Below, piece after piece: positions 1 to 2,406 of a stretch of DNA of 2,406 nucleotides; the stretch's first letter is position 1; each line of letters begins with the position of its first letter. The translations under genes were made by a program, and so were the position numbers. The notes under the pieces were generated by a model. The model worked only from the letters and a program-made list of their open reading frames with translations, made no database searches and was not told the origin of the DNA. The stretch comes from a virus (taxonomy: Duplodnaviria > Heunggongvirae > Uroviricota > Caudoviricetes), in IMG/VR virus record IMGVR_UViG_2695420644_000003. One strand, written 5' to 3'.

Positions 1-231
1 TTATCGACCAGCGATTTTTTCAGATCTGCAGAACACTTGGNGCCGNTNNANANGNAAATTGACCACATCAGACAGGAGGTTTAATTCACTCTGATAAATC
101 GCGATAACAGATTCAGTTATTTCGCGTTTTTCTTTATCAAGACCAAGTTGAATAAGAGACAAATCGCCATTTTTCATAACGGCGATTTTTAAGGCATTGT
201 TCAGTAAAACAACTGAACGAGAACAGGACAT
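1..231 (-). CDS. Hypothetical small protein, 76 aa from ATG at 231..229 (stop TAA at 3..1); distal gene of the leftward early operon; several codons ambiguous
   Basis: Open frame on minus strand with ATG at 231..229 preceded by GGAGG (7-nt spacer). The start overlaps the stop of the upstream ORF in the arrangement TGATG. The ORF track begins it at an in-frame TTG (234..232), which I consider less likely. Positions 41-56 contain N calls, so five residues are unknown. No recognisable domain. Confidence 0.55.
   Translation of the reverse strand: MSCSRSVVLLNNALKIAVMKNGDLSLIQLGLDKEKREITESVIAIYQSELNLLSDVVNXXXXRXQVFCRSEKIAGR
41..56. other. Patch of ambiguous base calls (N at 41, 46, 48, 49, 51, 53, 55)
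   Basis: Read directly from the sequence; interleaved N and called bases suggest low-quality base calling rather than a gap. Confidence 0.95.
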
Positions 232-455
232 CAAAGCACCTCCCCGCGAGACAAGCCGATGTTGTGAAATTTTTCCGACTCCTGACTGAGCAGCTCGACT
301 ATCTCCACGCGGGATAACTCCGCCTTTGTGATGTGGCGAATCATGGCGTCAAGATGAGAAGAAAAGCGCGTCGCTGCATCGGCCTGTGCTTCGGTTCTGG
401 CCTGTTGCAGCAGTAATGCGTATTTACCGCACTGATTTTCAGAAACTGTATGCAT
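231..455 (-). CDS. Hypothetical small protein, 74 aa from ATG at 455..453 (stop TGA 233..231)
   Basis: Minus-strand ORF. The ATG at 455..453 is preceded by GGAG (minus strand: CTGGAGAAAGTC-ATG). The track's longer version starts at a TTG at 488..486 inside the upstream hairpin region. Stop overlaps the start of the next ORF (TGATG). No recognisable domain. Confidence 0.55.
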
Positions 456-481
456 GACTTTCTCCAGGCAAAAAGAAGCCC

Positions 482-497
482 CGCACAATTAAGTGCG
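482..497 (-). other. Short inverted repeat (CGCAC-6 nt-GTGCG) between the B-like gene and the next ORF; on the minus-strand transcript it is followed by GGGCUUCUUUUUGCC
   Basis: 5-bp perfect stem seen in sequence, with a U-rich tract a few nt downstream on the minus-strand RNA; too short to call a terminator with confidence. Possible weak attenuator within the operon. Confidence 0.25.
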
Positions 498-518
498 TTA
501 AAAACTCTGGTTAATTAC

Positions 519-1019
519 TTAATGCAGATATTGCTCTGGTTTTACCGATGTCAGAATTGTCGGTGCATACTCAAACAGACTGAATAATTCACGTAATGCA
601 CGGAATAAAGCATCACGCCAGTAACATGATTCTTCATTAATTCGCCAGTATGGCTGGTTGAATTCTTTTTCTGTCAATCTGGCATGCATAAATAAAGTAC
701 GCCGCTGACTGACTGTTAAAAAACTAATATATGCATACTCACTTGCACCGACCTGACGGCGTTTTGAGAATGCCCCACGCAATTCATCAATTGCACAAAC
801 CAGCCGTTCACGTTCGACATCGTTCATTTCTTCGAAACGCATCGTTGCGTGACGTTGTTTTAACTGCGCATGGAAGCAAACCGTTAGCCGTTCACGTTCC
901 ATCATCTGATTATAATAATCACATGTCTCCTGCCAGCGAGGGACGGCCAGATGCTTACCAATTATCCGGCGCATAGCTGCTGGCTGTTTTTCGACGAGAT
1001 TAAGTGTCATCACTGTCAT
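519..1019 (-). CDS. B: Replication protein B-like (166 aa), P2 early-operon type
   Basis: 166-aa minus-strand ORF with ATG at 1019..1017 preceded by GGAGG (8-nt spacer). Its start overlaps the stop of the upstream small ORF (ATGA). Position (third gene after cox) and length match phage P2 gene B as I recall it (166 aa). Assignment rests on synteny, size and memory, not an alignment. Confidence 0.7.
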   Translation of the reverse strand: MTVMTLNLVEKQPAAMRRIIGKHLAVPRWQETCDYYNQMMERERLTVCFHAQLKQRHATMRFEEMNDVERERLVCAIDELRGAFSKRRQVGASEYAYISFLTVSQRRTLFMHARLTEKEFNQPYWRINEESCYWRDALFRALRELFSLFEYAPTILTSVKPEQYLH

Positions 1020-1186
1020 TTCCAGACCCTCCGGCTTTTCAGAAAGGTCAGAGCCTTTTTTAACGGACTCTGTTTTTTGGTGCGGATAATGATTCCCTTA
1101 CGCCCCTTACCGTGGGTGATGGTGAAGTCAATCGCCCTGGGGCTTTCGTTACGCAGTAACTGAGCAATACAACGAGGTTCATTCAT
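1016..1186 (-). CDS. Small, highly basic hypothetical protein, 56 aa from ATG 1186..1184; occupies the position of P2 orf78 between cox and B
   Basis: ATG at 1186..1184 preceded by a strong Shine-Dalgarno (minus strand TTAAGGAGAACCGT-ATG). The track's longer version starts at GTG 1210 and would overlap cox. About 15 K/R against 3 D/E in 56 residues. A tandem nucleotide repeat CCCTTAC-G-CCCCTTAC (1095-1110) encodes a G-K-G-R-K-G motif. Stop TGA overlaps the B start. Confidence 0.6.
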   Translation of the reverse strand: MNEPRCIAQLLRNESPRAIDFTITHGKGRKGIIIRTKKQSPLKKALTFLKSRRVWK

Positions 1187-1196
1187 ACGGTTCTCC

Positions 1197-1472
1197 TTAA
1201 CGTGGTTCACCGAGACCTAACCACATCAACCAGCCGTCACGAATCTCTTTAGGGCGGCTTTCATAAGCCAGTTTTAGTCCGTTATTCCATGCCGGAAGGT
1301 ATACCCAATATTCACCTGCACGACCTGAAGCTGATTGTGGATCGGTCATATCAATTACAGGCAGCTTTCCTTTATCGATCATCCGACGAACCGCTCCTGT
1401 CGATTTTCCTATTAGTTTTGCGAACTCCTGATAAGGAATCGCATCAGTCATGAGTGTTACTTGCTTGCTCAT
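1197..1472 (-). CDS. cox: Cox-like excisionase / lysogeny-switch regulator (91 aa)
   Basis: 91-aa minus-strand ORF with ATG 1472..1470 preceded by GGAGG (5-nt spacer); first gene of the leftward operon, divergent from the repressor gene. Length equals P2 Cox (91 aa, from memory). The segment IPYQEFAKLIGKSTGAVRRMIDKGKLPV followed by GEYWVYLPAWNNG has the look of an excisionase-type winged-helix DNA-binding protein. Confidence 0.8.
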   Translation of the reverse strand: MSKQVTLMTDAIPYQEFAKLIGKSTGAVRRMIDKGKLPVIDMTDPQSASGRAGEYWVYLPAWNNGLKLAYESRPKEIRDGWLMWLGLGEPR

Positions 1473-1553: not shown

Positions 1554-1583
1554 ATCTAAACTAAATACTATTGAGATCTAAAC
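1554..1583. promoter_or_regulatory. Two exact 8-bp direct repeats ATCTAAAC (1554-1561 and 1576-1583), 22 bp centre to centre, flanking the -10 of the leftward promoter; candidate operator half-sites for the C-like repressor
   Basis: Repeats read directly; additional CTAAAC copy at 1541-1546. Direct-repeat operators two helical turns apart flanking the Pe -10 is what I recall for P2 C repressor; binding here is inferred. Confidence 0.5.
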
Positions 1584-1593
1584 ACCATGTCAA
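1565..1593 (-). promoter_or_regulatory. Candidate leftward early promoter (Pe-like): -35 TTGACA (plus-strand 1588-1593), 17-bp spacer, -10 TAGTAT (plus-strand 1565-1570)
   Basis: Perfect -35 consensus and optimal spacer on the minus strand; -10 keeps the most conserved positions (TA...AT). Predicted start near 1557-1559, about 85 nt upstream of cox. The -35 overlaps the repressor start codon (1587-1589). Confidence 0.55.
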
Positions 1594-2001: not shown

Positions 2002-2406
2002 ATGGCAATCAAAAAACTCGATGATGGTCGATATGAAGTGGACATCCGCCCTACTGGACGTAATGGAAAACGCATCCGTAGGAAGTTTGATAAGAAAAGC
2101 GAAGCTGTCGCTTTCGAGAAATACACGTTGTACAACCACCACAATAAAGAATGGCTATCAAAACCAACAGACAAGCGACGTCTGTCGGAGCTGACACAGA
2201 TCTGGTGGGATTTAAAGGGTAAACACGAAGAGCATGGGAAATCTAATCTTGGAAAAATTGAAATCTTCACAAAAATAACGAATGACCCATGCGCATTTCA
2301 AATTACGAAATCGCTTATCAGCCAGTACTGCGCCACCCGAAGAAANTNNGNNNANNCCCAGGCCATCGCATGCCACTGGCAATCACCGGCATCGGCAAGG
2401 CATTGA
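2002..2406 (+). CDS. int: Tyrosine integrase, N-terminal (arm-binding) portion only; reading frame closes at 134 aa with TGA at the window end, after ambiguous bases at 2346-2356
   Basis: ATG 2002 preceded by GGAGG (8-nt spacer). The N-terminus (KKLDDGRYEVDIRPTGRNGKRIRRKFDKKSEAVAFEKY) has the pattern of a phage integrase arm-type DNA-binding domain. A complete integrase would be over 300 aa with a C-terminal catalytic domain, which cannot be present in this window. Whether the 134-aa stop is real or an artefact of miscalled bases cannot be decided from the sequence. Confidence 0.65.
   Translation: MAIKKLDDGRYEVDIRPTGRNGKRIRRKFDKKSEAVAFEKYTLYNHHNKEWLSKPTDKRRLSELTQIWWDLKGKHEEHGKSNLGKIEIFTKITNDPCAFQITKSLISQYCATRRXXXXXQAIACHWQSPASARH
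2346..2356. other. Patch of ambiguous base calls (N at 2346, 2348-2349, 2351-2353, 2355-2356) inside the integrase reading frame
   Basis: Read directly from the sequence. Confidence 0.95.

Follow-up and report, generated by a model that had tools for sequence, protein, structure and literature searches.

Lambda Kil, Rac Kil, DicB and T7 Gp0.4 are small phage inhibitors of cell division that are expressed early and are non-essential, and Fil of phage 186 is assigned to the same class. Fil corresponds to Pfam PF10893 (Phage_186_Fil / DUF2724) and to PHROG 816, which is labelled 'cell division inhibitor', and the 186 record states of fil that its 'overexpression blocks cell division'. In the same record the DUF2732, DksA-like and DUF5405 genes are each given as 'not essential', the entry for the DUF2732 protein reading 'unknown function; not essential'. 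The gene order fil-dhr-tR1-DUF2732 of 186 parallels the order orf78-B-terminator-DUF2732 of phage P2. Protein B of P2 is needed for lagging-strand synthesis according to the P2 record, and its binding to DnaB is given as the subject of a paper cited in PMC11087808. The P2 records name the products of the small genes Orf78, Orf80 and Orf81, as hypothetical or DUF proteins, and a published P2 gene table lists orf78, orf80 and orf81 as 'unknown' (PMC3091744). P2-like early regions are very common, yet five small early genes of P2 are without an assigned function.

The window, that is, the whole stretch of 2,406 nucleotides analysed here, corresponds between positions 56 and 2344 to the int-C-cox-orf78-B-orf80-orf81 region of a P2 prophage, with 98.1% identity to phage P2 and 100% identity to many E. 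coli prophages; sequence like that of the window was found in 3737 of 5426 complete E. coli genomes. The small open reading frames (ORFs) to which the first-pass annotation had drawn attention, and which it had equated with P2 orf78, orf80 and orf81, are orf78 and orf80, together with the 5' portion of orf81, in the Pe early/replication operon, as the P2 annotation and the 100% identity of Orf78 showed. They are long-annotated P2 genes and were already known. The early promoter Pe (1565-1593, minus strand), detected by a pattern scan as TTGACA and TAGTAT separated by a 17-nt spacer, coincides with the Pe of the P2 annotation and drives cox-orf78-B-orf80-orf81, of which cox (1197-1472, minus strand), recognised by its Pfam Phage_Cox match (5.5e-48) and by the P2 annotation, is the first gene. 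Alignment to P2 revealed that positions 1-55 (no strand) are non-phage sequence, made up of a fragment from inside the chromosomal gene sslE (1-40) and an N-rich joint between this fragment and orf81 (41-55). The 76-aa ORF (1-231) described in the first-pass annotation was rejected as a gene product: only 56-231 (58 codons) belong to orf81, and the frame is a chimeric truncation that runs through the joint into sslE and looks like an ORF because the sslE fragment supplies a fortuitous stop codon.

The gene orf78 (1016-1186, minus strand, 56 aa) was identified from the ORF list and the P2 annotation. Its product has the same sequence as P2 Orf78 (AAD03300.1 / NP_046789.1; PHROG 273), whereas the DNA around the gene differs from the P2 reference (98.1% identity), and it matched phrog_273 over residues 1-56 of 56 with an E value of 7.1e-41. 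As in P2, orf78 lies between cox and B and has an ATGA overlap with B. The protein is as basic as had been claimed (K+R = 15, D+E = 3, pI 11.65), and the Shine-Dalgarno sequence described for it was found as AAGGAG (1193-1198, minus strand), 7 nt ahead of the ATG, where it shares bases with the stop codon of cox (1197-1199). Codons 26-31 (1094-1111, minus strand) encode the G-K-G-R-K-G motif, inside which CCCTTAC occurs on the plus strand at 1095 and 1104. The motif and the two copies were therefore as reported, but the copies, which have a 9-nt period, are neither strictly tandem nor significant and are not conserved in relatives.

Median dN/dS was 0.26 for orf78, compared with about 1.0-1.4 in its other frames, 0.21 for orf80 and 0.23 for orf81, while shifted-frame controls across the three genes gave ratios of 0.95-1.8; the corresponding median for B was 0.066. 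The three small genes are genuine protein-coding genes under purifying selection, and the check proposed with the first-pass annotation thus found them both conserved and selected. Over the first 38 codons of orf78 the protein sequence is strongly conserved (PRCIAQLL, THGxGRKGIII), with synonymous change free, and the C-terminal third is weakly constrained (pN/pS 0.80). Residues T24, H25, G26, G28, R29, G31 and I34 are invariant across relatives. For invariant Orf78 residues, 2-5 synonymous codons are in use; for the (nearly) invariant G26, G28, R29 and G31 of the motif, 3-4 different codons each were counted. Because synonymous sites vary freely, a nucleotide-level element behind the Orf78 motifs or the CCCTTAC repeat was ruled out, and the repeat is, as judged from these comparisons, incidental. 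The structure model of Orf78 (pLDDT 76) predicts a helix, a beta-hairpin and a second helix, with hairpin strands at E21-25 and E32-36 and GKGRKG as the loop, and from it we infer a short N-terminal helix, a beta-hairpin with a GKGRKG loop and a basic amphipathic C-terminal helix.

Gene B (519-1019, minus strand), which encodes the P2 replication protein (98.2% identity to P2 gpB), is 166 aa long in the window and in all of the 34 related genome loci compared. The ATGA overlap between the orf78 stop and the B start, noted earlier and read here at 1016-1019 (minus strand), is kept in 34/34 loci, either as 4 nt or, where Orf78 has two extra residues, as 10 nt. The Shine-Dalgarno sequence of B, GGAGG (1028-1032, minus strand), is localised inside orf78 codons R52-R53, which in relatives are mostly CGG/AGA and AGG. 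Since the ribosome-binding site of B sits in the last orf78 codons, a ribosome ending Orf78 would be placed to initiate B.

We found orf78, B and orf80 together in 34/34 loci, among which the cox type and orf81/82/83 vary. Precisely at the orf78 ATG, the nucleotide identity in several of these loci falls from 82-100% to about 25%; orf78 and B form a fixed module whose boundary is exactly this start codon. Phage records with a full-length B and those with an Orf78 numbered 75 each, with matching organism counts; phage ENT4, a candidate for a B-bearing phage that lacked Orf78, turned out to have orf78 after all. When B was used as bait in viral contigs, near-identical E. coli prophages only were recovered, a result uninformative on distant relatives.

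The first-pass annotation had proposed that the small ORFs were translationally coupled. This stood for the orf78/B and orf80/orf81 overlaps, which are conserved, and failed between B and orf80, where a gap of 63 nt separates the genes in the window and one of 63-94 nt does so in 34/34 loci. A hairpin followed by a T-rich tract (470-497, minus strand; stem 482-497) was found in this gap by a pattern scan and is annotated in P2 as a putative rho-independent terminator; it is the positional equivalent of tR1 of phage 186. The hairpin is conserved, with compensatory stem changes, in the 17 loci inspected, and as RNA it folds with no unusual stability (z = -0.97), so that its designation as a putative terminator is based on conservation and on the P2 and 186 annotations and not on energy.

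The 74-aa ORF, orf80 (231-455, minus strand), has its own GGAG Shine-Dalgarno sequence, follows B in 34/34 loci, and encodes a DUF2732 protein that scored 39.9 bits against Pfam PF10809 (cut-off 25, E 4.2e-10) and 4.4e-34 against phrog_128. The DUF2732 protein of phage 186 (PF10809) is likewise encoded after the position equivalent to the B-distal terminator, as are P2 Orf80 and the 74-aa ORF of the window. The TGATG by which this ORF had been said to overlap the next one was seen at 229-233 (minus strand); an overlap of 1-8 nt is present in 18 of the 19 loci carrying orf81, and in the sole exception (locus L006) an insertion of 257 nt separates orf80 from orf81. What the window holds of orf81 is its first 58 codons (56-231, minus strand), identified by alignment to P2 and matching, like P2 Orf81/Orf83 (PHROG 265), the DUF5405 family. 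This fragment scored 62.6 bits against PF17399 (cut-off 21.6) over profile positions 1-56 of 88, and a full-length Orf81 homologue scored 119.5 bits over positions 1-88. The true length of Orf81 is 95-100 aa (100 aa in P2 and in the 100%-identical prophages); in contrast to P2 Orf81, the copy in the window breaks off early and continues into foreign sequence. PHROG 265 carries the label 'replication initiation protein', and the backing found for it was the label alone. orf81 is missing from 15 of the 34 loci, and the variable presence of orf81/82/83 is weakly compatible with accessory roles, though not specific to anti-defence. Orf80 (DUF2732) and Orf81 (DUF5405) may be accessory proteins, which would be made by read-through of the B-distal hairpin.

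That the small genes have no assigned function, as the first-pass annotation had put it, agrees with the P2 records and gene table cited above, with the label of PHROG 273 ('unknown function') and with our family searches. Orf78 gave noise only in Pfam (RDR6_2nd, E 0.14) and no match in NCBIfam; the one hit in a sequence-profile search of the PDB (6wt8, E 0.32) was due to chance, and no fold relatives were found in the PDB or BFVD. The small ORFs, Orf78 included, had no match in PADLOC, a weak test of the present question as PADLOC models defence, not anti-defence. No functional study of P2 orf78/80/81, DUF2732, DUF5405 or the Fil mechanism and no report of P2-induced filamentation was found in the literature searched, which did not extend to the primary 186 fil papers, and no P2-like gene was reported by a UPEC screen for inhibitors of cell division. 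The N-terminal motif of Orf78 and Fil was also considered as a mimic of the FtsZ C-terminal peptide KEPDYLDIPAFLRKQAD (MG1655) and was discarded, since 6-40% of shuffles match the best ungapped scores.

The only new lead on function was a possible distant correspondence between Orf78 and Fil, the cell-division inhibitor of 186. The slot of fil in 186 is that of orf78: it lies in the early lytic operon and overlaps the downstream gene, which precedes the terminator and the DUF2732 gene, and orf78 has the same position upstream of, and overlapping, a dhr/B-like gene. In an hhalign comparison of Orf78 with Fil, 17 N-terminal columns were aligned (P = 0.0026, probability 11%), and the observed score was reached by 2/300 column shuffles in local mode and 4/300 in global mode. 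The profile similarity is marginal. Orf78 is the positional counterpart of 186 Fil, to which it is probably also related, with much divergence. The Pfam Fil model PF10893, on which 186 Fil scores 84 bits, gave no hit with Orf78 at E <= 1, phrog_816 gave none either, and PHROGs put the two proteins in different families. An exhaustive profile search of 1.84 billion proteins yielded 32 clusters, none of which links Orf78 to Fil: each is either plain Orf78 or made up of frameshifted fragments.

If Orf78 is the counterpart of Fil, whose overexpression blocks division, a host-directed early role would be the most likely one, and the host-takeover or nucleic-acid-binding role suggested in the first-pass annotation is still plausible, its resemblance to Fil giving some indirect support. 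Orf78 would then have a non-essential, host-directed early function, would delay the host cell cycle (division) during phage replication, and would use its basic tail and hairpin to bind an acidic protein or nucleic acid. The reading as a whole, namely genes of the P2 operon with Orf78 as a diverged Fil-like, host-division-directed early protein, is the one we tentatively prefer, giving it somewhat less than an even chance. Against it, the fact that orf78 is strictly linked and coupled to B is explained no less well by a role in replication.

Such a role would make Orf78 a cofactor of B in phage DNA replication which, made in a fixed ratio with B, would aid the delivery of DnaB to the displaced strand and would bind single-stranded DNA or an acidic partner (the SSB tail, DnaB). 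It is favoured by the finding of orf78 only with B, always directly upstream and with the overlap conserved, as well as by its remaining next to B where the immunity/cox module has been swapped. The Orf78 family is as narrow as that of B (the 32 clusters among 1.84 billion proteins) and extremely basic throughout, the Fil-like proteins of 186-like phages overlap phrog_602 B-domain proteins, and B itself is placed in lagging-strand synthesis by the P2 record and linked to DnaB by the paper cited in PMC11087808, as far as that citation goes. However, the co-occurrence may reflect a narrow phylogenetic range and a lack of recombination in a compact module, and orf78 is far less constrained than B (0.26 vs 0.066; tail 0.80). 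Moreover, Dhr, the partner of 186 Fil, has no detectable similarity to B, and no nucleic-acid-binding or replication domain was detected in the family and fold searches with Orf78. We regard the cofactor role as possible, on the unlikely side. There is a small chance that both readings meet, in that Orf78 and Fil would be two branches of one small basic family working with B-domain proteins as a two-protein DnaB-capture device, the division block by Fil being a consequence of interference with host replication and not of a direct action on the divisome.

The conserved overlap, with the GGAGG of B inside orf78 codons 52-53, could also mean that translation of orf78 exposes the B ribosome-binding site or supplies it with ribosomes, and in this way controls how much of a potentially toxic DnaB-binding protein is made, the peptide itself having little or no function. 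The weak constraint on the C-terminal third of Orf78 (pN/pS 0.80) would agree with such a leader, which is nevertheless improbable, as B has a good Shine-Dalgarno sequence of its own and a pure leader would not need the 38 N-terminal codons to be conserved as protein. It is very improbable that the small early proteins neutralise host immunity systems, the anti-defence role that the first-pass annotation had raised. They are early, small and, by analogy with the 186 homologues, perhaps non-essential, and basic proteins are able to mimic or bind nucleic acids; but no finding supported the proposal, orf78 and orf80 are an invariant core of the replication module in the 34 loci and not variable cargo or a hotspot, selection on them is purifying without the diversification typical of arms-race genes, and no defence-related profile was matched (PADLOC). 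Finally, although a mechanical listing gives 23 ORFs of at least 30 aa in the 2.4-kb window and the 76-aa ORF as drawn is an artefact, the notion that one or more of the ORFs are chance frames and not real genes is scarcely credible, given that purifying selection acts on the annotated frames only, that starts, overlaps and Shine-Dalgarno sites are kept from Escherichia to Serratia, Brenneria and Rahnella, and that Orf80 and Orf81 score above the Pfam cut-offs.

Returning to Orf78 as a diverged Fil-like protein, both proteins are similar in size, both families are strongly basic (median pI 11.9 and 10.2), and a predicted helix, hairpin and helix follow each other in the same order at nearly the same residues, the Fil structure model being of low confidence (pLDDT 59). 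The N-terminal motif EPSFASLLVKQSP of 186 Fil is similar to EPRCIAQLLRNESP of P2 Orf78; (E)PxxxAxLLxxxSP is common to the two families at the N-terminus, and ISIAPLL is identical in a Yersinia-phage Fil and in Serratia-type Orf78. They differ in the hairpin motif, which is GxxxxxxGxRWxP in Fil and THGxGRKGIII in Orf78; the Fil-invariant hairpin residues G24, G31, R33, W34 and P36 have no counterpart in this Orf78 core. The C-terminus of Fil is longer, hydrophobic or different compared with that of Orf78, and division-blocking activity is recorded for 186 Fil only. With lambda Kil, Rac Kil, DicB and T7 Gp0.4, Orf78 would be comparable by function class only, no similarity in sequence or fold having appeared in any search.

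Fil and Orf78 can also be compared through their partners. The gene overlapped by a Fil-family gene is either dhr or one for a 112-aa protein of phrog_602, a family that P2 B matches as well. Phage 186 itself pairs Fil with Dhr, which shows no such similarity to B, whereas in many 186-like prophages Fil overlaps a B-domain (phrog_602) protein. Because B and these Fil partners are both phrog_602 proteins, the pairing of a small, basic protein with a B-domain protein is common to P2-like and 186-like phages. The analysis shows orf78, orf80 and orf81 to be real genes under selection and orf78 to be firmly tied to B, the helicase-loader gene, and Orf78 and Fil may be kin; the understanding of phage biology is unchanged unless the Orf78/B partnership proves functional. 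If Orf78 and Fil were one family that captures DnaB jointly with B-domain proteins, the P2 helicase loader would gain a previously unrecognised partner, and the 'fil/dhr' and 'orf78/B' cassettes of the Peduoviridae would be unified.

Positions 56-2344 of the window shared 98.1% identity with phage P2 (AF063097/NC_001895) and 100% with prophages of many E. coli chromosomes; of 5426 complete E. coli genomes, 3737 contained window-like sequence. Placing the window onto the P2 annotation localised int (from 2002) and the immunity repressor gene C (1587-1886) on the plus strand, and the early-operon promoter Pe (1565-1593, also recovered by pattern scan) on the minus strand, together with the early-operon genes cox (1197-1472), orf78 (1016-1186), B (519-1019), orf80 (231-455) and orf81 (starting at 231), all on the minus strand. 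Since the P2 genome record annotates the three small ORFs and the published P2 gene table (PMC3091744) enters them as 'unknown', orf78, orf80 and orf81 are an already known feature; what we add is the correction of an artefactual 76-aa ORF, proof of selection on the three frames, an orf78-B module boundary at a start codon and a testable connection to Fil, the cell-division inhibitor of phage 186.

Both ends of the window (1-55 and 2345-2406) are foreign: an internal fragment of the E. coli chromosomal gene sslE occupies 1-40, and an internal fragment of an IclR-family regulator gene occupies 2357-2406. Each end is joined to the P2-like core by an N-rich stretch in which the non-N letters match P2, and the arrangement resembles a consensus of merged overlaps or a chimeric assembly. 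The 76-aa ORF of the first-pass annotation is an artefact: only 58 of its codons (56-231) belong to orf81; the others run through the N-rich joint into sslE sequence, where a stop codon occurs by chance. P2 and the 100%-identical prophage both encode a true Orf81 of 100 aa, and in relatives its length is 95-100 aa. At the other end of the window, the P2-like sequence stops around 2355; in E. coli 120899 (CP025916), a genome with 100% identity over the core, IS100 interrupts the integrase gene at almost exactly this point (5300/5301 of its locus, L003). Because of this coincidence, the source prophage may carry the same IS insertion, with the assembly broken there. A pattern scan of the window returned nine terminator-like sites, where shuffles predicted 2.0; among them are an 11-bp stem within orf81 (161-188, minus strand) and one of 10 bp within int, on the strand opposite to that gene (2164-2188, minus strand).

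The earlier interpretation, three small ORFs coupled inside the early operon, was partly supported. The 56-aa product of orf78 is strongly basic, as claimed (15 K/R, 3 D/E, pI 11.65), a trait of the whole family (median pI 11.9); its strong Shine-Dalgarno is AAGGAG, seven nt 5' of the ATG and overlapping the cox stop, and its GKGRKG motif occupies codons 26-31. The CCCTTAC repeat exists in two copies (1095 and 1104), with a 9-nt period and not in strict tandem. Also present were the ATGA that joins the orf78 stop with the B start, a 74-aa ORF and its TGATG overlap. From this arrangement, orf78 would be translated off the Pe transcript via its strong ribosome-binding site, and B, whose ribosome-binding site lies within the last orf78 codons and whose start carries the orf78 stop, seems set up for coupled synthesis.

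A single coupled chain, however, is contradicted by the gap between B and orf80, 63 nt in the window and 63-94 nt in all 34 related loci from species-representative genomes. It contains a hairpin and a T-rich tract (470-497, minus strand) detected by pattern scan and annotated in P2 as a putative terminator, whose position was kept in 17/17 loci inspected and whose stem carries compensatory changes between genera (CGCAC/GTGCG, CACGC/GCGTG, GGCGC/GCGTC). The hairpin had no unusual RNA stability (z = -0.97). In phage 186 this slot holds terminator tR1, which according to the 186 record is anti-terminated in early lytic growth. Beyond it, orf80 and orf81 would be coupled to each other; their 186 homologues (DUF2732 and DUF5405, respectively) are annotated as not essential. 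We found no support for the PHROG label 'replication initiation protein' on Orf81. Orf81 and Orf83 of E. coli 120899 (L003 2877-3176 and 2381-2653, both minus strand) both cover the whole Pfam DUF5405 model (119.5 and 50 bits) but share no BLASTP similarity with each other; they are probably old paralogues on either side of the DksA-like zinc-finger gene orf82.

The genes orf78, B and orf80 were found together and in the same order in 34/34 loci. The cox slot upstream held several unrelated gene types, and the set of genes between orf80 and gene A varied, with orf81, orf82 and orf83 each present in some loci only; orf81 was missing from 15 of the 34, and some loci had about 300 nt of other sequence instead. 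The orf78 stop overlapped the B start in every locus; the overlap is 4 nt, or 10 nt in loci whose Orf78 is longer by two residues. In six loci (L004, L006-L009 and L012) identity to the window was 82-100% over the opening 120 nt of orf78 and at random level (~25%) in the 30 nt just 5' of it, and many sequenced phages match the window from 56 to 1186/1187 only. Therefore, the exchangeable immunity module meets the replication module exactly at the orf78 start (1186/1187): int-C-cox is swapped en bloc as far as this border, and orf78 moves together with B. Full-length B and Orf78 were each present in 75 records of the phage collection, with matching organism counts; phage ENT4, the one apparent case of B without orf78, proved to carry orf78. 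A profile search run exhaustively over 1.84 billion representative proteins returned a tiny Orf78 family of 32 clusters, all of them ordinary Orf78. By analogy with Fil, we tentatively propose, as the likeliest of its possible roles, that Orf78 may be a non-essential, host-directed early protein delaying host division during phage replication. The strict orf78-B linkage fits equally well the main rival, in which Orf78 is a cofactor that helps B recruit DnaB and which we consider possible if doubtful.

Conservation and purifying selection, whose lack the first-pass annotation named among its refuting conditions, were present for all three ORFs. In codon alignments from the 34 loci, ranging from Escherichia to Serratia, Brenneria, Pectobacterium and Rahnella, median pairwise dN/dS was 0.26 for orf78, 0.21 for orf80, 0.23 for orf81 and 0.066 for B, and reading the same alignments in shifted frames gave 0.95-1.8. 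Orf80 and Orf81 are selected accessory proteins. Constraint in orf78 was localised in codons 1-38 (pN/pS 0.33), followed by a loose tail (0.80) in which codons 52-53 (R-R) form the GGAGG ribosome-binding site of B. Because the invariant residues P4, A8, L11, I23, T24, H25, G28, G31 and I34 use 2-5 different codons each, the codon comparison indicates that conservation is at the protein level and that the CCCTTAC repeat is incidental; a pure leader-ORF role for orf78 is unlikely for this reason. An anti-defence role of the small ORFs received no support and is very improbable.

An AlphaFold2 model of Orf78, built from a 35-sequence alignment at moderate confidence (pLDDT 76), predicted a short helix (residues 7-13) corresponding to the invariant IAQLL motif, a beta-hairpin (strands 21-25 and 32-36, loop GKGRKG) and a basic C-terminal helix (41-55). 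Searches of Pfam, NCBIfam and PADLOC and a sequence-profile search of the PDB gave no match for Orf78, which belongs to PHROG 273, labelled 'unknown function'.

The early operons of 186 and P2 have the same layout: apl, cII, fil, dhr, terminator tR1, DUF2732 and DksA-like genes and, further on, DUF5405 and A in 186; cox, orf78, B, terminator, orf80 (DUF2732), orf81 (DUF5405), orf82 (DksA-like), orf83 (DUF5405) and A in P2. Fil (75 aa) is, like Orf78, small and basic (family median pI 10.2) and overlaps the next gene. The N-termini read EPSFASLLVKQSP in Fil and EPRCIAQLLRNESP in Orf78, ISIAPLL being exact in both Yersinia Fil and Serratia-type Orf78, and a low-confidence model of Fil predicted the elements in the same order and at nearly the same residues. 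However, Orf78 did not match the Pfam Fil model, hhalign aligned 17 columns only (P 0.0026, probability 11%), shuffled controls scored at least as high as the real profiles in 2/300 and 4/300 trials, and the conserved hairpin residues differ between the families. On this evidence we regard Orf78 as the positional counterpart of Fil and possibly a distant relative, rather than as a Fil-family member. A weak tblastn match of B led to Yersinia phage vB_YenM_31.17, where a 61-aa 'cell division inhibitor' lies directly 5' of a 103-aa B-like protein. Among 80 Fil loci from viral contigs (L120-L199), the 75-aa form of Fil overlapped dhr by 11-20 nt and a 66-aa form overlapped a 112-aa phrog_602 protein by 25-37 nt; this protein has the central motif of P2 B. 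Because residues 37-83 of P2 B match phrog_602 (2e-9), B appears to contain a domain common to the short phrog_602 proteins, and the Yersinia B-like protein bridges the two. These matches indicate that a small basic protein with the Orf78/Fil N-terminal motif, overlapping a B-domain protein, recurs in P2-like and 186-like phages.
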